Below, in pieces: positions 2,971 through 20,000 of a stretch of DNA of 20,000 nucleotides. A model generated the notes under the pieces. It was not told where the DNA came from. It saw only the letters and a program-made list of their open reading frames with translations, and did not search any database. Each line of letters opens with the position of its first letter. Position 1 is the first letter of the stretch. Made by a program: the position numbers and the translations under genes. The DNA comes from an uncultured virus (IMG/VR IMGVR_UViG_3300042879_005846) (Duplodnaviria > Heunggongvirae > Uroviricota > Caudoviricetes): IMG/VR virus record IMGVR_UViG_3300042879_005846; one strand, written 5' to 3'.

Positions 2971-4299
2971 TTGAATTATTTTAAGAATGTGAAGCTATTT
3001 CTAAAATATATTTTTTCCCTACTATTTTCAACTTGTTGGTTGCTTATAAGTGTTTATTTATCCTATCCTTGGGTTTGTGAAATTGCAAATTATATTGGAT
3101 TTTTCTTAGCTTGGACTGTAGTACTTGGTATATCATTACTACCAGGTGTAGCTCTCTCATTTGTGGGTATTTCACTTTATATTGATAATAGACCAAGACA
3201 CAAATTAGAAAAAAATCAACTACCACCAATCTCAATTCTGATAGCAGCTTATAATGAAGAACAAACTATTTATTCAACTTTACAAAGCATTTACTCCCAA
3301 AAATATCCAAGCGATTTTGAAATTGTTATAGTTAGTGATGGTTCCAAAGATAAAACAATTGAGTTTGTGAAACTCTTTGAAAAAAATAATGGTTGTAGAA
3401 ATTTAATAATCATTGATAATGAGGAAAACAAAGGAAAAGCTCTTGTATTAAATCAGGGATTAGAATATTGTAAATATGAACTAATTGTTGGTGTAGATGC
3501 TGATTCAATGTTACATGATTTAGCTCTTGAAAAAATAATACAAACAATGGTTGGGTCTGATGAAGATTATGCTGCTGTTGCTGGAACCATTCTTTGTAGA
3601 AATTACAAAAAATCATTCATTGCTAGATTACAATATTGGGATTATTTGATAGGTATTTCCTCAATCAAAAGAATACAATCAATGTACCAAGGCACATTAG
3701 TAGCTCAAGGAGCTTTTTCTGTTTATAAAAAATCTATACTAAAAGAAATTGGAGGTTGGCCTAATAAAATAGGTGAGGATATTGTTCTAACTTGGAATAT
3801 TTTGGACAGAAACCACAAAGTTGGTCACTCAGAACATGCTATTTGTTTTACAAATGTACCAGAAACCTATAAGGGGTTTTATAATCAAAGAAAAAGATGG
3901 TCAAGAGGATTGATTGAAGCTTTTTTTTCCTACCCAAAATTATTATTTAAAAAAAGAAAGTCTACATTTTTTATATGGTATAATTTGTTTTTCCCATTTA
4001 TAGATTTTATTTTCATGTTTGTATTTTTTCCTGGTGTGATTGCAGCATTATTTTTCAAATTTTACCTGGTTGCTGGAATTATTACCATACTACAAATCCC
4101 ATTAGCTATTATTTATAATGCAACTATATTTTTCATCCAAAAACAAAGTTTAAAAGAGGAAAAACTCAGTTTACCAAGTGGTATGTGGTTGACTTCTATA
4201 GTTTATATTATTATTTATCAACTAATAATGACACCAGCTACGCTGGATGGATACTTATCAGAATTATTGAATAAAAAGAAAACTTGGGGCGATGAATAA
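2971..4299 (+). CDS. processive GT2 glycosyltransferase, PgaC/IcaA (poly-beta-1,6-GlcNAc synthase)-like
   Basis: N-terminal TMs; IAAYNEE, DGSKD, GKA.VLN, DAD, GED, QRKRW (D,D,D,QxxRW signature); C-terminal TMs; ends KTW. Confidence 0.85.
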   Translation: MNYFKNVKLFLKYIFSLLFSTCWLLISVYLSYPWVCEIANYIGFFLAWTVVLGISLLPGVALSFVGISLYIDNRPRHKLEKNQLPPISILIAAYNEEQTIYSTLQSIYSQKYPSDFEIVIVSDGSKDKTIEFVKLFEKNNGCRNLIIIDNEENKGKALVLNQGLEYCKYELIVGVDADSMLHDLALEKIIQTMVGSDEDYAAVAGTILCRNYKKSFIARLQYWDYLIGISSIKRIQSMYQGTLVAQGAFSVYKKSILKEIGGWPNKIGEDIVLTWNILDRNHKVGHSEHAICFTNVPETYKGFYNQRKRWSRGLIEAFFSYPKLLFKKRKSTFFIWYNLFFPFIDFIFMFVFFPGVIAALFFKFYLVAGIITILQIPLAIIYNATIFFIQKQSLKEEKLSLPSGMWLTSIVYIIIYQLIMTPATLDGYLSELLNKKKTWGDE

Positions 4300-5206
4300 G
4301 TTATTGTTTTTACTTATCTTTTTTATTCCAATAGAAGTATTTTCACAAAGAGAGTTTTTCTCAAGTTCATTTATTTCAGTTGATAATGAAAATCAAATAA
4401 ATATTAGTTCTAATCAAGGTATTTCAACAGAACTTGACTCATTATTCAAGAAGGATTCAATATTTATAAAAAGGAAAACTTTTGTTGGTATATCAAATGG
4501 AATCAGATATTATAAAACTAATATAAATGAACCCACTTATTACTTCAATGAGTCAAAAATTTACATAAAATCAACACCATTCAAAAGATTTACAACAATT
4601 TTCAATCCATCATTACTTATATCTAAAAACTTCTCAACATTTTCATATGAGTTTTCATCAAGCTATCAAATAAAAAAGTTTTATTTTGAAGCTTCTTCTG
4701 AAAGAGATTTAGTTGGAGCAAGAGCACTTATGGTCAACTTGGTTTCAAACTATTATGGATTATCTGTTGATTATAATTTCTTTAAAGGATTTACTTTGGT
4801 AGGTGGATACCAATATAATTACATAAATGACAATAATAAAAGACATTTTTTACTTAGTAGACTAATTTATACTTTATCAAATGAAAAAATATACTTTGAT
4901 TTTAGAACAAAAGATATGAGAGGTGGTACTTGGAGTCCTTATTATTTCAGTCCAGAAAAAATATCCCAAAGACAAATTGGATTTGGATTTAATGATAGTT
5001 TTTTCCAAGATAAAATGGCTTTTGGTGGATATTTAGGTACTGGAGTACAAACAATTGATACACAGTCTATGTATTTATTGGTGGTTGATTTCAAATTTAA
5101 AAGTAGAATAACAAAAAAGTTAGTTTCAGAAGGAAACTTTGGTGTTAGAAATTTCAATAAATATATTTATGGTTTTACAAACTTAAAACTAAAATATATT
5201 TTCTAA
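4292..5206 (+). CDS. putative outer-membrane beta-barrel protein (PgaA/YaiO-like export pore)
   Basis: Signal peptide MNKLLFLLIFFIPIEVFS; alternating aromatic amphipathic strands; YYFSP motif; C-terminal LKLKYIF beta-signal; overlaps the GT2 stop by 8 nt. Confidence 0.6.
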   Translation: MNKLLFLLIFFIPIEVFSQREFFSSSFISVDNENQINISSNQGISTELDSLFKKDSIFIKRKTFVGISNGIRYYKTNINEPTYYFNESKIYIKSTPFKRFTTIFNPSLLISKNFSTFSYEFSSSYQIKKFYFEASSERDLVGARALMVNLVSNYYGLSVDYNFFKGFTLVGGYQYNYINDNNKRHFLLSRLIYTLSNEKIYFDFRTKDMRGGTWSPYYFSPEKISQRQIGFGFNDSFFQDKMAFGGYLGTGVQTIDTQSMYLLVVDFKFKSRITKKLVSEGNFGVRNFNKYIYGFTNLKLKYIF

Positions 5207-9553: not shown

Positions 9554-9617
9554 ATATTCTAAAACTATAAAAGGTTAAGTAAGTATAATATTATTATGAA
9601 TATTGAATTGCAATACT
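9554..9617 (+). repeat. direct repeat copy B (functional thyA upstream region and start)
   Basis: 56/64 identical to 8655-8718; offset 899 bp. Confidence 0.9.
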
Positions 9618-10678
9618 TAGAACTTCTTAAAGATATATTAGAAAATGGTTGTTCGAAAGGTGATAGGACTGGAACAGGAACTATCTCAGTCTTTGGAAGA
9701 CAAATCAGACACAAAATGTCAGAAGGATTTCCACTTCTCACAACTAAAAAAATGTATTTCAAAGGGGTTATTACAGAACTTCTTTGGTTTTTGAGAGGTG
9801 ATACAAATATCAAATATCTTTTGGACAATGATTGTCATATTTGGGATGGTGATGCTTTCAAAAACTTTATGACTAAAAGTGAAGGAGATCCTGATTTGAT
9901 TTGGAATAAAGAACAATTTATTTTGAAAGTCAAAAATGAAAAGGATTTTGGTAAAAAATGGGGCGAATTGGGCTCCGTGTATGGCGCACAGTGGAGAAGT
10001 TGGAAACATATGGGACCTAAATCTCAACAAGAGATGTTAGATGAGAATACCAATTGGCCTTGGAAAACAACAGAAATAGACCAAATTTCAAACCTAATTA
10101 ACGACCTTAAAACAAATCCTGATAGTAGACGATTAATGGTTTCTGCTTGGAATGTAGGTGAATTAGATCAAATGGTACTCCCACCTTGTCATTATGGATT
10201 TCAAGTTTATACAAGAGAGTTGAGTGCTCAAGAAAGATTAGAATGGGTTAAGGTGAATTTTCCAAACCTTGATGTGAACGGTTTTGTTAATAACGATGAG
10301 TATAGTCATAAGTGGGTAGAAACATTAAGTGGCAATATACCAACCAGAGCAATCTCTTTAATGTGGTCACAAAGATCGATCGATAGTTTGCTCGGCTTGC
10401 CGTTTAATATAGCTTCTTACGCAACCCTACTTGAAATCTTAGCAAAAGAAGTTAATATGGTACCAGATGAACTTATTGGGAATCTTGGAGATTGTCACAT
10501 TTATAGTAACCACATTGAACAAGTAAAAGAACAGATTTCAAGAACACCACATAAATTACCAACCCTAAAATTCGAAGTTACAAATCTACTTGAAAATTTA
10601 ATGGATTGGAAACCATCAGATTTTTCAATATTAAATTATGAATCTCACCCAGCTATAAAAGCCCCACTTAGTAACTAA
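9596..10678 (+). CDS. thyA: thymidylate synthase
   Basis: DRTGTGT, FPLLTTKK, ELLWF, YG.QWR, DSRR, LPPCH (catalytic Cys), QRS.D..LGLPFNIASY, GDCHIY.NH; contains in-frame insertions. Confidence 0.97.
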   Translation: MNIELQYLELLKDILENGCSKGDRTGTGTISVFGRQIRHKMSEGFPLLTTKKMYFKGVITELLWFLRGDTNIKYLLDNDCHIWDGDAFKNFMTKSEGDPDLIWNKEQFILKVKNEKDFGKKWGELGSVYGAQWRSWKHMGPKSQQEMLDENTNWPWKTTEIDQISNLINDLKTNPDSRRLMVSAWNVGELDQMVLPPCHYGFQVYTRELSAQERLEWVKVNFPNLDVNGFVNNDEYSHKWVETLSGNIPTRAISLMWSQRSIDSLLGLPFNIASYATLLEILAKEVNMVPDELIGNLGDCHIYSNHIEQVKEQISRTPHKLPTLKFEVTNLLENLMDWKPSDFSILNYESHPAIKAPLSN

Positions 10679-11556: not shown

Positions 11557-13314
11557 TTATCCTATTTTTTGTATAATAAATTGAGTGTTCAAGTCACCTC
11601 TAATATACTCACCATTCAATGCATTAGTAGAACTAGTAGTTCTGATTTTAACATCGATAGTTGTACTTGCAACATAGATAAAATCTAAATCTCCGCTACT
11701 TACATTATTACTACCGCTTGTTGGTTGAATCTGTTCAACTGTAGGACCCAACTGATTATTAGAACTATCAAAACATGAATATTGTATCAAATATGTAGCA
11801 CCAGCTGACCAAGCTAATCTTGCTGTTATTCTGTAGGTACCTGATGTTAATGTAGCTCTACCAGTTGAGGTGTTATATGTTATATTATTTGCAACTACCG
11901 AATTATTAAAAATTATATCTTGGCTAGCCCAGTTACCAGAAGGTATTGTTTGATTGGTATTTCTTGTAACATAAAGCCAAGCATTTGGCGATATATTTGT
12001 TGCAACACCAGCACCTTGCGTAGTTATATCAATATAAGCACCTCTAGCCGAACCCCCACTTTCAAAGAAACGTAACCTATTTTGGTAAATGTCAATAGTA
12101 ACACCAGTATTAATAGATGTATTAGTCACTGCCTTATTGAAGAACATTTCACCACCTTCGTCCCCACTTTGATAGTTTAATTTTAAAGTTGCTCCGTCAT
12201 AAATGAGAGTAGATTCAACAGAAACATTAGGAGAAGAACCATTAAGAGTTAGAATACCGTTATCAGTACTTCCGGTTAATGATAGAGCACCAGTAGATCC
12301 TTGTACTCCTTGGAAACCTTGTGGACCAGTTGGTCCTTGTACACCTTGAAATCCTTGATTGCCTTGTGGACCAGTCCCACCCTGCACTCCAGTAGCTCCA
12401 GTAGGCCCAAGTTGGGTATACATTACTTGTTGAACAGTCAAAATTATCGAAGGTATGGCGGGTCTTGTTGGATTTGATTGTGTACCTCTTGTTAATATTC
12501 TAACATCAGTATCGTTGGAGTGCCAGTATAATTGAAAATAGTCACCAGAATTAAAACTCAAAACAAAGTTCCAAGCAGCAACTAATTCAGTATTATTACC
12601 CACAATTTCCAAAGTAGTCGATGAGTCTGGCACATTTATTCCATTTTTAGACAACCATATTTCAACTTGGTCTGCACCACTATCAGTTTTATCAATTTGA
12701 GCTGAAAATTGTATATTGTAAACACCTGAGTTTTGTATTAAAATCCTTGAACTCTGAGTGACTGAAATCCCATTAGCCTCTGATGTTGTGTTTATTGTAA
12801 ACGCGTTAGCAAAAGTTGCACCAGCATTTGTCTGAGTTGTTGTGTCATATCCACTGAAATAATACCCTAATGACCCACCAGTGCCAGTTGGACCAACTAA
12901 ACCTTGAACTCCTTGAGGACCAGTGTTTCCTTGATTACCAGTACCACCACCCAAAGAACCTTGAATACCTTGAAATCCTTGCGCGCCAGTATTTCCCTGT
13001 GGACCAGTAGCTCCTTGAACTCCTGTAGGTCCTGTCGAACCTTGATTACCCTGAAGTCCTTGTGGACCAGTAACACCTTGTGGACCTGTAAATCCTTGAG
13101 GACCAGTAACACCTTGTGGACCTGTAAATCCTTGAGGACCAGTAACACCTTGTGGACCTGTAAATCCTTGAGGACCAGTGAAACCTTGATTTCCCTGTGG
13201 ACCTTGGAATGTCAGTAAATTTCCATTACCATCATAAAATTTATTATTAACAACTTGTACCAATCTTGGAATAGTGTTTGGTACAATCTGAAATATCTTG
13301 TTGGGTAAGGACAA
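11557..13314 (-). CDS. collagen-like fibre protein with two globular beta (C1q/BclA-C-like) domains
   Basis: Two Gly-X-Y blocks (GPQ/GFT/GVT/GNQ); T/S/N-rich beta domains with [11 protein letters not shown] and [13 protein letters not shown] start. Confidence 0.85.
13058..13183. repeat. tandem repeat, 3.5 x 36 bp (alternating 18-bp units), encoding [12 protein letters not shown]
   Basis: CCTTG(T/A)GGACCAGTAACACCTTGTGGACCTGTAAAT repeated near-perfectly. Confidence 0.9.
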
Positions 13315-15165: not shown

Positions 15166-15587
15166 TGAAAGATATTTTAGAACTAATAAAATTAGAAGGA
15201 GACCATAAGAAATGGTTATACACTTGTATAAATGGATTACAATTTGATTGTTCTATTTTCAGAAACCCAAGGGGTGGACATCTTTGTGGTTATGTTGCAT
15301 TGACTACAGACAATGATTTCTTTGGAAAAAATTATGATGATATTCCAGTAAGATGTCATGGTGGGTTAACTTACGCTTCTGAAAATGGTGATAATTGGGT
15401 AATTGGGTTTGATTGTGCTCATTATGAAGATTTACAACCATTCTATACTGACCAAGAGATATATAATGATAATAGAGTTTATAAAGATATGAATTTTGTA
15501 ACTGAGGAATGTGAATCTATCTGTGAACAAATTTCAGAAAAAAGTAAAGCCCACAAAAGAACAAAAAAAATAAATGAATTAATATGA
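15165..15587 (+). CDS. conserved phage-type hypothetical protein (HGGLTY/GFDCAH motifs)
   Basis: HLCGYV, CHGGLTY, IGFDCAH; start at 15165 (TAATG coupling) preferred to 15111. Confidence 0.8.
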   Translation: MKDILELIKLEGDHKKWLYTCINGLQFDCSIFRNPRGGHLCGYVALTTDNDFFGKNYDDIPVRCHGGLTYASENGDNWVIGFDCAHYEDLQPFYTDQEIYNDNRVYKDMNFVTEECESICEQISEKSKAHKRTKKINELI

Positions 15588-15775
15588 AATATTTTCTACA
15601 AACAGTTATGTTCCTAACAATTATAATATCAATCTTGTTTATAACAATAGGACTAAAATACTCTGAGTCAGCAGTACAAGAAGCATCAGCAGCAGGGTTT
15701 GCTTGTTTCTTTGGTATCTTGACCAGAATTTTACAAGCAGAAATCCACCAAATCAAAGAAACCCCTCAAGAGTAG
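15584..15775 (+). CDS. small two-TM membrane protein
   Basis: ATGA overlap with the upstream stop; two hydrophobic segments. Confidence 0.7.
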   Translation: MKYFLQTVMFLTIIISILFITIGLKYSESAVQEASAAGFACFFGILTRILQAEIHQIKETPQE

Positions 15776-15801: not shown

Positions 15802-16473
15802 CTACTTCTCAGAAGCATACTTAACACCCATAATAGTACCAACTATACTGAAAGCATTGGTCAATAATATACCAATAATATTTGCCCATGTGGAAGAAAT
15901 AACAGCAGTATCTTTGTCAGTGAAAAGGGCCAACAGATAAACACCAGTTGTGACAAAACCAACACCAACTATAACATAAAGAGCAACCTTAACAATGGTA
16001 CCAATTAGTTCATTCTGAGTTTTACGTTGTAGAATATCCAAATCATTCTCAACTTTAGTCTTAGCAAGTTCTGCTTCTTCTCGAGCTGCTTCAGCTTCTT
16101 CTTTGGCAACTTCAGCGTCTTGTCTTGCAATTTCAGCTTCTTGTCTAAGATTTTCAGCTTGTTCTTTAGCAGATTCAACTTCTTGCATAGAAGATTGAAT
16201 CTGTTCTAAAGATTCTTTTAGACTTTGTTGGGAATACTCTAATTCTTTTTGGGATTCTAATAGTTCTTTATTTTGTAATTGGACTTGTTTGGTCATGTCC
16301 AATCTTTTTTTCCTAGATTCCTTGTCTTTTTCAATTGAAACTTTAATGTACTCCTCAAATTCAGGATCATTAGTAGTATCAATTAATTTTAGGATATTAC
16401 CTTCAATAGCAACTTTCTTATCTTCAAAAAGAGATATTAATTGTTTTTTGGATTTTGAATCAAATAAAATCAT
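15802..16473 (-). CDS. coiled-coil protein with two C-terminal TM helices, last gene of the signalling operon
   Basis: A(K/R)(Q/E)(E/D)AE heptads, then two hydrophobic helices; starts 3 nt after the receiver gene stop. Confidence 0.85.
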   Translation of the reverse strand: MILFDSKSKKQLISLFEDKKVAIEGNILKLIDTTNDPEFEEYIKVSIEKDKESRKKRLDMTKQVQLQNKELLESQKELEYSQQSLKESLEQIQSSMQEVESAKEQAENLRQEAEIARQDAEVAKEEAEAAREEAELAKTKVENDLDILQRKTQNELIGTIVKVALYVIVGVGFVTTGVYLLALFTDKDTAVISSTWANIIGILLTNAFSIVGTIMGVKYASEK

Positions 16474-16476
16474 AGA

Positions 16477-16908
16477 CTATTTATAAACTTTGAATGGTGC
16501 TTTTCTTACCTTATAACCATCATAATCCTTTTTAAAATCTTCAAGTCTTGGTTCAATATCATCTGATTTAATAATCCAAAACTGAGCACCAGCTTGCATT
16601 GCCCTAGTTTGTTCTTCTGGTTCATTTGAAGATGAAATAATTCCTATAACAACATTATTACCATAATCAAAGTTAATCTTTCTAATCAGTTCAATCCCAT
16701 CAACAGAAGAACCAATGATATTCAAATCAACAAATACACATTCTGGTCTTCCACTAGAATCTTTCTGCCATTTTTTAAATAATACCTCACACTCATCAGT
16801 GGTATTTAGTGTCTGTAAAGACAACGTGATGTCCAATAAGGAACATGCATCTTCGAAAACCAAATGAAAAAGGCTTTCATCATCAATTAATAACATAGAA
16901 TCAATCAT
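16477..16908 (-). CDS. single-domain response regulator (receiver)
   Basis: LLIDDE acidic pocket, VFVD61 phosphoacceptor, DGIEL, ISSS, AGA, IIK; no output domain. Confidence 0.9.
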   Translation of the reverse strand: MIDSMLLIDDESLFHLVFEDACSLLDITLSLQTLNTTDECEVLFKKWQKDSSGRPECVFVDLNIIGSSVDGIELIRKINFDYGNNVVIGIISSSNEPEEQTRAMQAGAQFWIIKSDDIEPRLEDFKKDYDGYKVRKAPFKVYK

Positions 16909-16911
16909 AAC

Positions 16912-17634
16912 TTATACGTAAATAAAATTTATTTTTTTTGTTTGCATCTTTCTCTTAAAATATGAATAACCCATTTCAATTGAATTTGCAGCTTCTTTTA
17001 AACTAGTATAAAAAATACCTGTCAGTACATTTAATACTAATTTAGCATTAGAATTTTCACCTAACTTTCTTTTGCCCTTTTTTGAGGCACTCATTTTTTC
17101 CTTTGATTCAGTTGAAAAAGATTTCCCCTTGTTCCATGAACTTCTACCTTTTGAATTCAAGGACATCTTAATCTTACTTTCTTCACTATGTGTTTTCCCT
17201 AACCTAGCTAGTCTGATATTCTCTCTATGATTTTCTGATTTTTTGACACCAATAGTAGAAAGACTCTGTTTTATTCTGGACTCTTCACTTCTTTTCTTAC
17301 CCCTATTACCAGTGCCCAATAAAAATTTAGTTTCATCAGTTATTACTTTATTGAAAGTCCCCTCACCACCATCAGTCATATTAGACAAAATACCAGTATT
17401 ATTATTAATTCTACCATAGTATTTTATCAAATCTTTCTCTATTTGACAAGCAATTTCCCAATCAATATCTTGGTGTAATATTTCCACTACTATTTCTGTC
17501 TTTTCGCTTATCCTATTCCAAATTTCATTTCTTTCTGATAATTTATTAGCTCTATAAAAATCCATGTCACTACCAATACCAATATAAAATGGTTGATTTT
17601 TATCTTTCCTTATATGTTGATAAACATAAGCCAT
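16912..17634 (-). mobile_element. free-standing GIY-YIG homing endonuclease with NUMOD3 repeats
   Basis: YVY...FYIG...R, E..LI..YG, N.TDGGEG; four G(K/V)xxSxExxxxxS/R repeats; C-terminal YTSLKEAA (NUMOD1-like). Confidence 0.85.
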
Positions 17635-17638
17635 TTAT

Positions 17639-19078
17639 TTATCTTATTTTTATTTTTAACTTTGTACCAACAGGTTCTAACTTTTCAGAAGTTATTGAGA
17701 ATCCATGCTCCTTCAAGATCGCTAAACTTATGTTCAAACCTATCCCATCACCAGTCTCTTTTTGACCTTCTCTTCTGACATAAGGTTTGGATAAGTGTAG
17801 AAACTCTTCTTGAGTCATACCCCTTCCATTGTCTTCTATACATATATATTCATCTTCTGAATAAATTTTTATCATTTTATTTTCAGAATCATTATATTTT
17901 AAACCATTCTTTATTAGGTGATCTATAGCTATATCAAATAAATAACCATTCATCTCTAAATTTGGTAAATTTTCTGATAATTCTACTTGGTTTTTGTATG
18001 CAGTAGTATCTAAAAATTTATCTAAAGAATCTTTAATATTTAAATTTTCTTTTTCTAAAACAGTTTCTCTTTTAACTAAATTAGAAAAGTTATAAATTTC
18101 TTTATAAACCTTTTGTGTATGACTCAAACCCTCTTTTAACATTTTTAAAGGTGCTTCAATCTTCAAGTTTTTAATATCTTCTTCTGTTAATCTTTTTTCT
18201 AAAGAACTTAAACCTCTTGGCATATAAGTGTTTATGCCAGAGTGCATATCATGTCTTATTAATCTAGCTGAGTATTCTAAGAAACCATTCTTAGATTGTA
18301 TATCATCAAATTGTTTTATTATTTCACTATTTAACTTATCAATTTTCCTCCTTTGTATTAAGTTTCTAGTAATCAATCCTATTATAGTAGATAATATAGT
18401 AATTAATAAAGCAACTAATATTAACCAGTTTTTATAAAGGTCAACTTCAATTTTCAAATCTTCCCTCTCAATAACAGTTTCTTGTAATTGTTTTTCCTTT
18501 TTCAATAAGTGAACTGCTCTTTCTTTAGCTTCTTTCATTGGTTTACTTTCAACAGAATCATTTTTTGATTCAGACAATAACTGATGTAATTGTTCATCAA
18601 CCATTTTCAGAGTTTCCTCAGCTCCTTCCTTCGATAAACCATGATAATTAATCTTGGAAAGGTTCCTAAGAATATTAGATGTTCTTGTACCAAGTGCTTT
18701 TTCCATTAAGGAATCACTTATTGGATCTGCAACTTTTTTCTTATTTTTATTTGATTCAAATCTAACTAAATCATCCTTTGCTAAACCCCTATAATAATAA
18801 GCATCTACATAATTTGGATTTATTTTTATTGCTTTACTGAAGTCTGATATAGCTCCTTTATAATCTTTCAATTTATGTTTAGCACAACCCCTATAAAAAT
18901 AAGCATCAGCGTAATCAGGATTAATTTTTATAGCTTTTGAGTAATCACTTATGGCAGCCTTATATTCATCTTTATTAGTTTCCTCAATACCATTATCAAA
19001 GTAAGTAGTATCATTCTGCGCATTTATATTTATAATAAAGAATGATAAAAATATTATAATCAGATTTATCTTAATCAT
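17639..19078 (-). CDS. membrane sensor histidine kinase with extracytoplasmic TPR repeats
   Basis: Signal peptide, about 2.5 TPRs (AISDYSKAIKINPDYADAYFYRG), TM helix, H-box RHDMHS, N-box HLIKNGLKY, G1 DNGRG, G2 GDGIGL. Confidence 0.9.
   Translation of the reverse strand: MIKINLIIIFLSFFIININAQNDTTYFDNGIEETNKDEYKAAISDYSKAIKINPDYADAYFYRGCAKHKLKDYKGAISDFSKAIKINPNYVDAYYYRGLAKDDLVRFESNKNKKKVADPISDSLMEKALGTRTSNILRNLSKINYHGLSKEGAEETLKMVDEQLHQLLSESKNDSVESKPMKEAKERAVHLLKKEKQLQETVIEREDLKIEVDLYKNWLILVALLITILSTIIGLITRNLIQRRKIDKLNSEIIKQFDDIQSKNGFLEYSARLIRHDMHSGINTYMPRGLSSLEKRLTEEDIKNLKIEAPLKMLKEGLSHTQKVYKEIYNFSNLVKRETVLEKENLNIKDSLDKFLDTTAYKNQVELSENLPNLEMNGYLFDIAIDHLIKNGLKYNDSENKMIKIYSEDEYICIEDNGRGMTQEEFLHLSKPYVRREGQKETGDGIGLNISLAILKEHGFSITSEKLEPVGTKLKIKIR
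18791..18967. repeat. 102-bp-period degenerate repeat encoding tandem TPRs
   Basis: 18791-18866 aligns with 18893-18967 (34-codon offset). Confidence 0.75.
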
Positions 19079-20000
19079 ATTTAATTTTTAATTTTGTACC
19101 TCCCTCCTCAAGTTTTTCAGCAGTTATTTCAAATCCATGTTCATCTAAAATAGCCTTACAAATGTTTAGTCCCAAACCAGTTCCTGTTTCTTTCTGACCT
19201 TCTTTTCTAACATAAGGTTTGGATAAATGTTCAAAATCTTTTTGATCTATACCCCTACCATTATCCTCAACCATAATATAATTATTACCGTCAATAACTT
19301 CTGAATAAATCTTTACAAATTTAGAATCACTATCATTATATTTTAATCCATTTCTTATTAAATTATCTACTGAAGTACAGAATAGTGCTTCATTAACTTC
19401 AATTGTTGGTAAGTTATCATCTAAAAGAACTTGTGACTTATAAGAAGTGCTTGATAAATAATCATTTAATATTCCTTTTATATTACATTCAGCCTTACTT
19501 AATAATACATCTTTCTTTACCAAGTTAGTGAACTCATAAACACCCTTATAAACTTTCTGCGCATGTTTAAGACCTTCTCTAATCATTCTCAAAGGTGCTT
19601 CTATTTTTAAATTATGTACTTCTTCATCACTTAACCTTCTATCTAATGAAGACATACCTCTTGGAATATAAGTGTTAATACCAGAGTGCATATCATGTCT
19701 CAAGATTTTAGCTGCGTGTTCAAGGTAGGTATTTTTCTTTTCTATTTCTTTAGATTGCAATACTTTTTCTGTTACATCTTGACAAATCTTCATTATTTTA
19801 TATGGTTTACCATCAAATCCAATAATAGGGTTATAAGAAGATTGTAACCAAACAATACTACCATCTGATTTTACCCTAGTACACTCACCAGTTACAAAAT
19901 TACCTTCCCTTAATTTTTCCCAGAACTCAATATACTCTTGAGATTTTTTATATTCTGTTTCCACGAACATAGAGTGGTGCTTACCTACTATATCTTCTTG
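19071..20000 (-). CDS. PAS/PAC-domain sensor histidine kinase (5'-truncated by the window edge)
   Basis: Frame stays open upstream of 19970 (QEDIVGKHHSMF, a PAS motif); FWEKL..G, DGSIVWLQSSYNPI, QDVT; RHDMHS, NLIRNGLKY, DNGRG, GTGLGL. Confidence 0.93.
   Translation of the reverse strand, partial: QEDIVGKHHSMFVETEYKKSQEYIEFWEKLREGNFVTGECTRVKSDGSIVWLQSSYNPIIGFDGKPYKIMKICQDVTEKVLQSKEIEKKNTYLEHAAKILRHDMHSGINTYIPRGMSSLDRRLSDEEVHNLKIEAPLRMIREGLKHAQKVYKGVYEFTNLVKKDVLLSKAECNIKGILNDYLSSTSYKSQVLLDDNLPTIEVNEALFCTSVDNLIRNGLKYNDSDSKFVKIYSEVIDGNNYIMVEDNGRGIDQKDFEHLSKPYVRKEGQKETGTGLGLNICKAILDEHGFEITAEKLEEGGTKLKIKYD

Follow-up and report, generated by a model that had tools for sequence, protein, structure and literature searches.

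The stretch of DNA analyzed here, the window, comprises 20,000 nucleotides of an uncultured tailed virus (IMG/VR record IMGVR_UViG_3300042879_005846; Caudoviricetes) whose source contig is 78,621 bases long. According to open reading frame (ORF) calls, five minus-strand genes are packed closely from position 20000 down to position 15802, and we regard with high confidence the signaling module that they hold as an intact, virus-encoded histidine-aspartate (His-Asp) relay. The first gene (19071..20000) encodes sensor histidine kinase 1, of which the C-terminal 309 amino acids are present, the 5' end of the gene being cut by the end of the window. It is followed by the gene for histidine kinase 2 (17639..19078), a protein of 479 amino acids with a signal peptide, tetratricopeptide repeats (TPR), one transmembrane helix, and a core of dimerization and histidine phosphotransfer (DHp) and catalytic (CA) domains. 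A free-standing homing endonuclease of the GIY-YIG/NUMOD3 type (16912..17634), a single-domain response regulator receiver of 143 amino acids (16477..16908), and a coiled-coil protein of 223 amino acids with a C-terminal two-helix membrane hairpin (15802..16473), here called the hairpin protein, complete the cluster.

The start of the kinase 2 gene overlaps the stop of the kinase 1 gene by 8 nucleotides (nt) (19071-19078), and the genes that follow are separated by 4 nt (kinase 2 to endonuclease), 3 nt (endonuclease to receiver), and 3 nt (receiver to hairpin gene). An initial annotation of this region gave these spacings exactly and correctly named the PAS kinase, the TPR-transmembrane kinase, the receiver, and the coiled-coil protein with two transmembrane segments. 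However, between the 4-nt gap and the first 3-nt gap, inside the cluster, lies a fifth gene, that of the homing endonuclease, which it did not list with the others, and the PAS kinase that it named is truncated by the window end. The clustering is far beyond chance, because this set of genes is found in 84 distinct loci, referred to below as the relay loci; the number comprises the window and 83 contigs and excludes four duplicate fetches.

Kinases and receiver

Both kinases were recognized with Pfam. Kinase 1 matched PAS_3 (E value, 1.5e-8) and HATPase_c (64.6 bits against a cutoff of 26.4), and kinase 2 matched TPR_11 (E value, 4.6e-17), TPR_1, and HATPase_c (41.9 bits against the same cutoff of 26.4); by these HATPase_c scores, both carry the catalytic domain of histidine kinases. 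The part of kinase 1 inside the window consists of the last PAS domain, a DHp domain with the H-box RHDMHSGINTY, and a CA domain, and it is 75 to 77% identical to full-length GAF-PAS-PAS kinases in two relay loci, L004 and L003. Because the 75% identical relative in L004, which is 649 amino acids long, has the GAF-PAS-PAS form, kinase 1 is probably the C-terminal half of such a kinase of about 650 amino acids, with an N-terminal GAF-PAS part beyond the window end. A motif search placed the kinase 1 H-box at 19680-19700, its N box at 19332-19352, G1 at 19251-19265, and G2 at 19167-19184, and the kinase 2 H-box at 18236-18256, all on the minus strand. The core of kinase 2 is 60% identical to that of kinase 1, the two H-boxes are identical, and both proteins carry NGLKYND (N), DNGRG (G1), and GxGLGL (G2). 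In all 18 kinase cores that were aligned, the four boxes (H, N, G1, and G2) are conserved, and RHDMHSGINTY is present in 105 of 110 kinase ORFs, the other 5 being truncated ORFs.

A profile built from the 18 cores matched structures of the HK853/EnvZ/QseC class (4jas, 3dge, and 3jz3; E values, 2e-12 to 8e-11), in an alignment that starts at the second DHp helix. The invariant H-box histidine lies about 40 residues before the stretch aligned to DHp helix 2 of HK853. Since the first helix is missed by Pfam HisKA, we infer the phosphoacceptor from invariance and position, which make the histidine of RHDMHSGINTY the predicted site. The kinases resemble the HK853-RR468, EnvZ, and QseC class, their best match, in the alignable DHp helix 2 and CA domain and in the N, G1, and G2 boxes. 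They differ from it in that they have no HAMP domain, their H-box helix is not recognized by Pfam HisKA, and their cognate regulator carries no DNA-binding domain. An NCBIfam scan gave generic kinase and regulator matches only, all below the cutoff.

One kinase is found in 41 and two kinases in 19 of the 60 relay loci that have at least 4.2 kb of upstream DNA, so the TPR kinase appears to be an optional second input. In many two-kinase loci (L005:10867-11469 and equivalents), a gap of about 600 nt between the kinase genes holds the gene for a secreted protein of about 200 amino acids without a family. This protein, which is absent in the window, where the kinase genes overlap, may be a periplasmic co-sensor for the membrane kinase.

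The receiver scored 34.2 bits with Pfam Response_reg (cutoff, 30.2), and its 143 amino acids contain no second domain. Residues D9, D10, D61, S92-94, and K114 do not vary among the 26 sequences aligned, and alignment with the solved response regulator 3ilh puts D61 on the phospho-aspartate position. The protein has the domain score, the acidic pair, the phospho-aspartate, the serine/threonine, and the lysine of a single-domain CheY-like receiver, and likewise no output domain. The predicted phosphoacceptor D61, the aspartate of VFVDLN, is encoded at 16726..16728 (minus strand). This residue had been singled out in the initial annotation, which also described the receiver as lacking a DNA-binding output; the invariance and the 3ilh alignment uphold the former claim, and the latter is borne out by library scans, in which no DNA-binding domain was found. 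Among relatives, the receiver is the most conserved part of the module, showing 74 to 87% identity compared with 57 to 77% for the kinases. A LytSR-type system was considered and rejected, as the receiver has no LytTR DNA-binding domain and the kinases are of the PAS and TPR types.

Viral relatives, cellular cousins, and sensor-hairpin fusions

The first kinase finds seven IMG/VR contigs, and a profile of the receiver matches at least 492. The module of the window is 74 to 87% identical to those on the IMG/VR phage contigs. Five relatives are represented by near-complete genomes of 290 to 322 kb (91 to 100% complete according to CheckV), one with direct terminal repeats, and a large terminase was found in all five. 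By terminase content and a length of more than 200 kb, these five are jumbo phages; the window's own contig is 78.6 kb long. In the five genomes, the module receiver is the only receiver found (it was detected in four of them), HATPase_c is confined to the module kinases apart from one other match in genome G008, and no Hpt protein or second receiver was found. The relative in L004 carries a UvsX-like gene and other phage genes, judged from their translations, and the window itself has a collagen-like tail fiber gene, the homing endonuclease, and many ORFs without a family match. Near-identical DNA occurs in lake water metagenomes of several studies. Among 50,697 deposited phage records, no match was obtained with the whole window by megablast or with the receiver or the hairpin protein by tblastn. 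The kinase core matched these records only at less than 33% identity, mostly in entries that resemble bacterial contamination and in one hypothetical protein of a Microcoleus phage. A gene beside the module in L067 (3411-5738) encodes an SprB/PKD protein with a CHU_C type IX secretion sorting domain. Type IX secretion is not known outside Bacteroidota, so the CHU_C/SprB domains of this neighbor point to a Bacteroidota host.

Cellular genomes yielded few counterparts. A scan of 185,579 species genomes, of a kind that finds only close relatives sharing two short peptide patterns, detected the receiver pattern at 7 loci, under five different phylum labels. Five of the seven carry the phage-type trio of kinase, receiver, and hairpin protein, in metagenome-assembled genomes (MAGs) labeled Verrucomicrobia, Bdellovibrionota, and Alphaproteobacteria, and are most simply read as misbinned phage; the sixth locus described is a 2.2-kb fragment. 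L091, a 967-kb Bacteroidetes contig, and L092 hold kinase-receiver pairs that have in common with the module the H-box (RHDMHSGIN), a multi-PAS sensor, and a stand-alone receiver (61 to 64% identical). They differ from it in having no hairpin protein and in their cellular neighbors, namely, a TetR-like gene in L091 and, in L092, genes for proteins with type IX secretion tails and for CreD, with an ordinary HisKA kinase after the receiver. When 401 sampled genomes of that phylum were searched with the back-translated H-box, it turned up in 1, the query genome itself. Judged by this distribution, the relay is overwhelmingly phage-borne, with rare cellular cousins. The phage context proposed in the initial annotation is supported by the relatives (terminase in all five at 290 to 322 kb, terminal repeats in one), and the comparison of synteny in viral and cellular genomes that it called for gave at least 492 IMG/VR contigs against the 7 species genome loci. 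It had named ordinary bacterial operons as one result that would overturn it; the closest syntenic homologs are viral, but rare kinase-receiver pairs without a hairpin protein do occur in the two Bacteroidetes MAG contigs.

Some of these loci have peculiarities of their own. The cousin kinase at L091:5032-7998 is split into two ORFs with long, nearly identical PAS-PAS repeats, which may have arisen by recent internal duplication or by collapse of repeats in the assembly. L090, an 89-kb contig of a MAG labeled Bdellovibrionota that may be phage or cellular, has a copy of the trio with a higher GC content (0.48), next to which lie a PrkA-DUF444-SpoVR operon as well as Fpg, NUDIX, and Dam-like genes. 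Other neighbors of the module include a full Hsp70/DnaK gene (L015:2493-4382), a NusG-like gene (L036:5077-5622), and a class II tRNA synthetase-like gene (L013:9962-10819).

The arrangement of the module is nearly constant. In all 84 relay loci, the receiver and hairpin genes are adjacent, with gaps of -68 to +5 nt that are mostly overlaps of 1 or 4 nt; the hairpin gene of L058 is cut by the contig end. A kinase gene lies directly upstream in 75 of the 76 loci with at least 700 nt of upstream DNA, the exception being L083, in which an Amidase_2 endolysin stands in place of the kinase. Among longer proteins that contain the hairpin region, we found P0121 (393 amino acids), which is composed of two PAS domains, a short coiled coil, and the hairpin. 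Its PAS domains are 47 to 49% identical to the kinase PAS domain of the window, and its hairpin is 64% identical to that of the window. An exhaustive search with the 84-residue hairpin against 1.84 billion representatives returned 92 clusters, in all but a few of which the hairpin is C-terminal, and among them are the fused forms GAF-hairpin (P0126), PAS-hairpin (P0148), and PAS-PAS-hairpin (P0162). The fused form matched 160 viral stretches, 80 loci of which were fetched, and a kinase or receiver was found in none of the 80.

Because such fusions exist without a kinase or receiver, the sensor types of the window kinase can be wired straight to the hairpin. Across the architectures compared, the kinase, the receiver, and the N-terminal domain of the hairpin protein appear to form an exchangeable relay between sensor and hairpin. 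The direct fusion of GAF and PAS sensors to the hairpin also makes the hairpin protein the likely output of the relay. The idea, put forward in the initial annotation, that the receiver acts through the coiled-coil membrane protein gains from these natural fusions and from the invariable adjacency of the two genes.

The hairpin protein and its possible role in lysis

AlphaFold2 (40-sequence alignment; mean pLDDT, 84.8) modeled the hairpin protein as a small N-terminal domain followed by a helix spanning residues 37-185, which would enter the membrane, and, after a tight turn, another helix at 189-220. The N-terminal domain (residues ~1-90) is conserved and the segment 141-220, which comprises the juxtamembrane part and the hairpin, is nearly invariant, whereas the stalk varies in length and sequence. 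The long N-terminal part is predicted to be cytoplasmic because GAF and PAS domains are fused there in relatives. An i-spanin (Rz-like) identity was rejected on the same ground and because the transmembrane helices are C-terminal, not N-terminal. The protein belongs to no Pfam, PHROG, or PADLOC family; Pfam gave a weak alanine zipper match only, and the PADLOC matches were coiled-coil artifacts (Cas1; E value, ~1e-4). A BFVD fold search returned one uncharacterized family member and nothing annotated, and the Atlas structure neighbors outside the family (dynein stalk and TraM) were discarded as long-helix look-alikes with TM scores of at most 0.40. Atlas clusters of the protein are 94 to 100% viral. 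It matches 6109 database proteins at an E value of 0.001 or lower, a part of the lower-ranked ones possibly being coiled-coil noise, and the best 120 of the 6109 are all at least 58% identical over 97 to 100% of the query. As far as these homologs indicate, the hairpin protein is phage-only.

The initial annotation had also suggested co-folding the receiver with the coiled-coil protein. We did so with residues 1-160 of the hairpin protein and judged the scores by a mark that 116 of 157 solved complexes attain, as do 2 of 215 mismatched pairs; the passing cases with scores of 0.60 or below comprise only 18 solved complexes out of the 157 and both of the mismatches. The three runs scored 0.56, 0.58, and 0.01 (median, 0.56), and the best of three controls scored 0.00. 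At least 15% of contacts are common to the runs, and the partner pLDDT is at least 84. The co-fold lends the contact weak support, slight when taken alone. Together with the invariant, translationally coupled gene pair, the models modestly raise the odds that the receiver binds the hairpin protein directly.

Genes for peptidoglycan hydrolases, counted as PG_binding_1 plus GH19, Peptidase_M15_3, or Amidase_2, lie in the fetched flanks of 53 of the 84 relay loci. They are directly adjacent to the module in 32 and at most one gene away in 41, and their placement varies: some follow the module on its own strand, and others precede it, either on that strand or divergently. Among the fused-form loci, 65 of 80 have a hydrolase gene in the flanks and 30 of 80 have one within 100 nt. 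In three genomes of about 300 kb, G001, G007, and G008, the gene abutting the module is the only PG_binding_1 gene present or the strongest; this is not the case in G005 and G006. Several loci also have a small holin-like ORF with two transmembrane segments between the hairpin gene and the GH19 gene. Hydrolases of three unrelated families persist next to the hairpin gene across two architectures and in several orientations, which argues for a functional tie between the hairpin protein and lysis. Lysis timing, one of the roles that the initial annotation had floated, is accordingly the option best supported by the gene neighborhoods of the relatives, but not by the neighborhood of the window itself.

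In the circuit that we propose, the cytoplasmic GAF-PAS-PAS kinase would read a host-internal or metabolic cue and the periplasmic TPR kinase an envelope or external cue. Both would phosphorylate D61 of the single receiver, which is expected because their phosphoacceptor helices are almost identical. The receiver, having no DNA-binding domain, would act by contact, as CheY and DivK do, with the cytoplasmic N-terminal domain of the hairpin protein as its docking site. From there, the change would travel down the stalk of about 110 residues to the nearly invariant two-helix hairpin, which would act as, or on, a holin and thereby advance or delay endolysin release. We infer the phosphotransfer, the binding of receiver to hairpin protein, the direction of the effect, and the role in lysis, and we hold the chances that the whole chain, from relay through hairpin to lysis control, is correct to be evenly balanced. 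A wider reading is that a large and widespread freshwater clade of jumbo phages times its burst by its own His-Asp phosphorelay, with GAF/PAS and TPR inputs, acting posttranslationally on an undescribed coiled-coil hairpin holin or antiholin, and that sister phages hard-wire sensors to the hairpin. We offer this reading tentatively, with somewhat less than even confidence.

Several observations weigh against the proposed circuit. Neither kinase matches Pfam HisKA, and the H-box is atypical. In the window, no endolysin or recognized holin is encoded in the 15.8 kb downstream of the module, the upstream side being cut, and the closest relative, L004, likewise has no adjacent lysis gene. The fetched flanks of 31 of 84 relay loci and 15 of 80 fused-form loci hold no hydrolase, and the loci come from related phages, so that their neighborhoods cannot be counted as independent. 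No described holin family in Pfam, PHROG, PADLOC, or BFVD matches the hairpin protein, whose 223 amino acids and weakly charged tail, KYASEK, are unlike the size and tail of typical holins. Candidate small holins adjoin it in some loci, and instead of forming the hole it may have a regulatory part in lysis or serve another purpose. The 0.01 given above comes from one of the three co-fold runs, and the L091 and L092 pairs, without a hairpin protein, imply that the receiver can have other partners.

The relay and the hairpin could be real and yet control a different membrane process, such as superinfection exclusion, membrane potential or transport, or envelope remodeling, in which case the linkage to hydrolases would reflect a shared late-gene position. 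The missing lysis neighbors in the window and L004 and the lack of a holin family fit such a role, as does a window neighborhood rich in envelope and glycan genes (a family 2 glycosyltransferase [GT2] synthase, a GT25 gene, and a secreted barrel-like protein). We nevertheless consider it unlikely, given that the hairpin gene lies beside three unrelated types of hydrolase, on either side and strand and in two architectures, and that the only or strongest PG_binding_1 gene abuts the module in three of the five near-complete genomes. It is also conceivable that the hairpin protein is not the output but serves the kinases as a scaffold or feedback regulator, or tethers the receiver to the membrane, with the target of the phosphorylated receiver encoded elsewhere in host or phage. 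Single-domain receivers are often shuttles or sinks (Spo0F and CheY-type sinks), the cellular kinase-receiver pairs do without a hairpin protein, and the co-fold support is weak. However, the GAF- and PAS-hairpin fusions (kinase or receiver in 0 of 80 loci) put the hairpin downstream of a sensor rather than acting on a kinase, and the five near-complete genomes yielded no Hpt protein and no second receiver, which makes this arrangement quite improbable.

Interference with host signaling, in which the phage kinases would phosphorylate host regulators or the phage receiver would drain phosphate from host kinases, has only a slim chance of being correct. Cross-talk is conceivable with systems like the two Bacteroidetes MAG pairs, which have the same H-box kinase and a receiver 61 to 64% identical, but a matching host system is rare, as the H-box and receiver counts given above attest, and the phage module is complete in itself, its own receiver and hairpin protein being inherited along with it. 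That the window is part of a cellular chromosome, or the module an ordinary bacterial operon, is scarcely credible. The 20 kb contain no terminase or capsid gene and seven MAG contigs carry the receiver, but the close matches of the module are IMG/VR phage contigs, complete relatives have terminase and terminal repeats, the window holds a tail fiber gene, a homing endonuclease, and many ORFs without a family, and the MAG matches, under five phylum labels, include five of seven with the phage-type trio. A giant eukaryotic virus, as low GC content, collagen repeats, and glycosyltransferases might suggest, was rejected because the relatives carry a tailed-phage terminase, a UvsX-like gene, and other phage genes.

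The proposed circuit has partial parallels in known systems. In CheA-CheY-FliM and DivJ/PleC-DivK, as here, one or several kinases converge on a receiver of about 120 to 140 amino acids without an output domain, and the output is a protein, not DNA. The present module differs in being virus-encoded, in having HisKA-like kinases with the atypical RHDMHSGINTY rather than CheA-type kinases, and in its proposed target, a phage-only hairpin protein without a family. In T4 lysis inhibition, as described in the accessible part of PMC11413866, a sensed signal acts by contact on a membrane lysis protein with a large soluble regulatory domain (holin T, with antiholin RI), and the logic proposed here, from signal to contact on the soluble domain of a membrane lysis protein, is alike. 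However, T4 senses superinfection through a periplasmic antiholin without phosphorylation, whereas the putative regulatory domain here would be cytoplasmic and fed by a His-Asp relay; the hairpin protein has no sequence similarity to T or RI. LytSR with CidAB/LrgAB likewise couples a two-component system to holin-like and antiholin-like membrane proteins, so far as the accessible portions of PMC5717393 and PMC3507848 go. That system is cellular and transcriptional, working through DNA-binding LytTR, whereas here there is no DNA-binding domain and control would be posttranslational, and Cid and Lrg have no sequence relation to the hairpin protein. The module belongs to none of the CheY/DivK-type, T4 lysis inhibition, or LytSR systems.

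Two-component signaling is regarded as a cellular invention, and lysis timing as a matter of holin clocks and antiholins, so that a virus-owned relay with a phage-specific membrane output would be new. The agr genes reported from a Clostridioides phage include one for an AgrC-type kinase but none for a regulator, and hybrid kinases are known from phaeoviruses; both are unlike this module. Our search of the openly accessible literature found no phage-encoded kinase-receiver system and no kinase-controlled phage lysis. A survey of jumbo phages (PMC7824862) describes, in its accessible part, only a divergent receiver, never linked to histidine kinases. If the proposed circuit is real, viruses would process environmental and host-state information with their own phosphorylation circuitry, and a new kind of signal-gated lysis control would exist. 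The natural series of two kinases with receiver and hairpin, one kinase with receiver and hairpin, and sensor fused to hairpin makes the idea testable and offers compact modular parts (sensor, relay, and membrane effector) for synthetic biology. The family is abundant, with the receiver on at least 492 viral contigs, yet absent from the deposited phage records, and a common mechanism may have been missed since no member is cultivated.

Homing endonuclease and other features of the window

The endonuclease matches NUMOD3 of Pfam (E value, 5e-8) and the homing endonuclease family phrog_314 (E value, 3e-22). It is present between kinase and receiver in only 2 of the 84 relay loci, the window and L014 (L014:3518-4240), where it occupies the same site and is 67% identical; the reading frames that flank it are intact. 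It is a mobile passenger in an otherwise seamless operon, not a part of the relay, and a plausible target for homing is the start of the receiver gene, which is highly conserved. A second lake water run has contigs identical to the window over 16537-17298, covering receiver and endonuclease. Parts around the endonuclease have no contig cover in runs X3 and X4, a gap from which nothing was concluded. In run X1, one low-depth contig joins position 16908, at the start of the receiver gene, to position 19080, at the end of the kinase 1 gene, with 13 other letters between them, and so passes over both the TPR kinase and the endonuclease. On its shorter side this joint covers only 21 letters, and the contig may come from a co-occurring one-kinase relative; it was not used as evidence.

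Sites of the sigma-70 promoter type are not above chance in the window (27 found versus 26.8 expected), and searches found no terminator on the coding strand and no tRNA. A 63-amino-acid ORF (15584-15775, plus strand) with two hydrophobic segments, a charged tail, and a holin-like shape converges on the hairpin gene, its end being 27 nt away. It was considered as a candidate holin but has no family and no homolog among the ORFs of the loci compared. The genes downstream of the hairpin gene are a convergent phrog_2164 gene and then glycosyltransferase-like, collagen fiber, thyA, and unmatched genes.

At 2971-5206 (plus strand), a family 2 glycosyltransferase of 442 amino acids has transmembrane segments on both sides (Glycos_transf_2 E value, 5e-29; Chitin_synth_2 E value, 2e-14), and the end of its gene overlaps by 8 nt the start of a gene for a 304-amino-acid secreted protein with a barrel-like ending, ...KLKYIF. 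The pair looks like a phage-borne exopolysaccharide synthase with an outer membrane partner. The thymidylate synthase (9596-10678, plus strand) has 360 amino acids against a profile of 266 positions, which implies about 90 residues of insertions. The collagen repeat protein (11557-13314, minus strand), 585 amino acids long with two G-x-y tracts, matches phage tail fiber families, and the GC content at its gene is 0.395, compared with about 0.29 elsewhere in the window.

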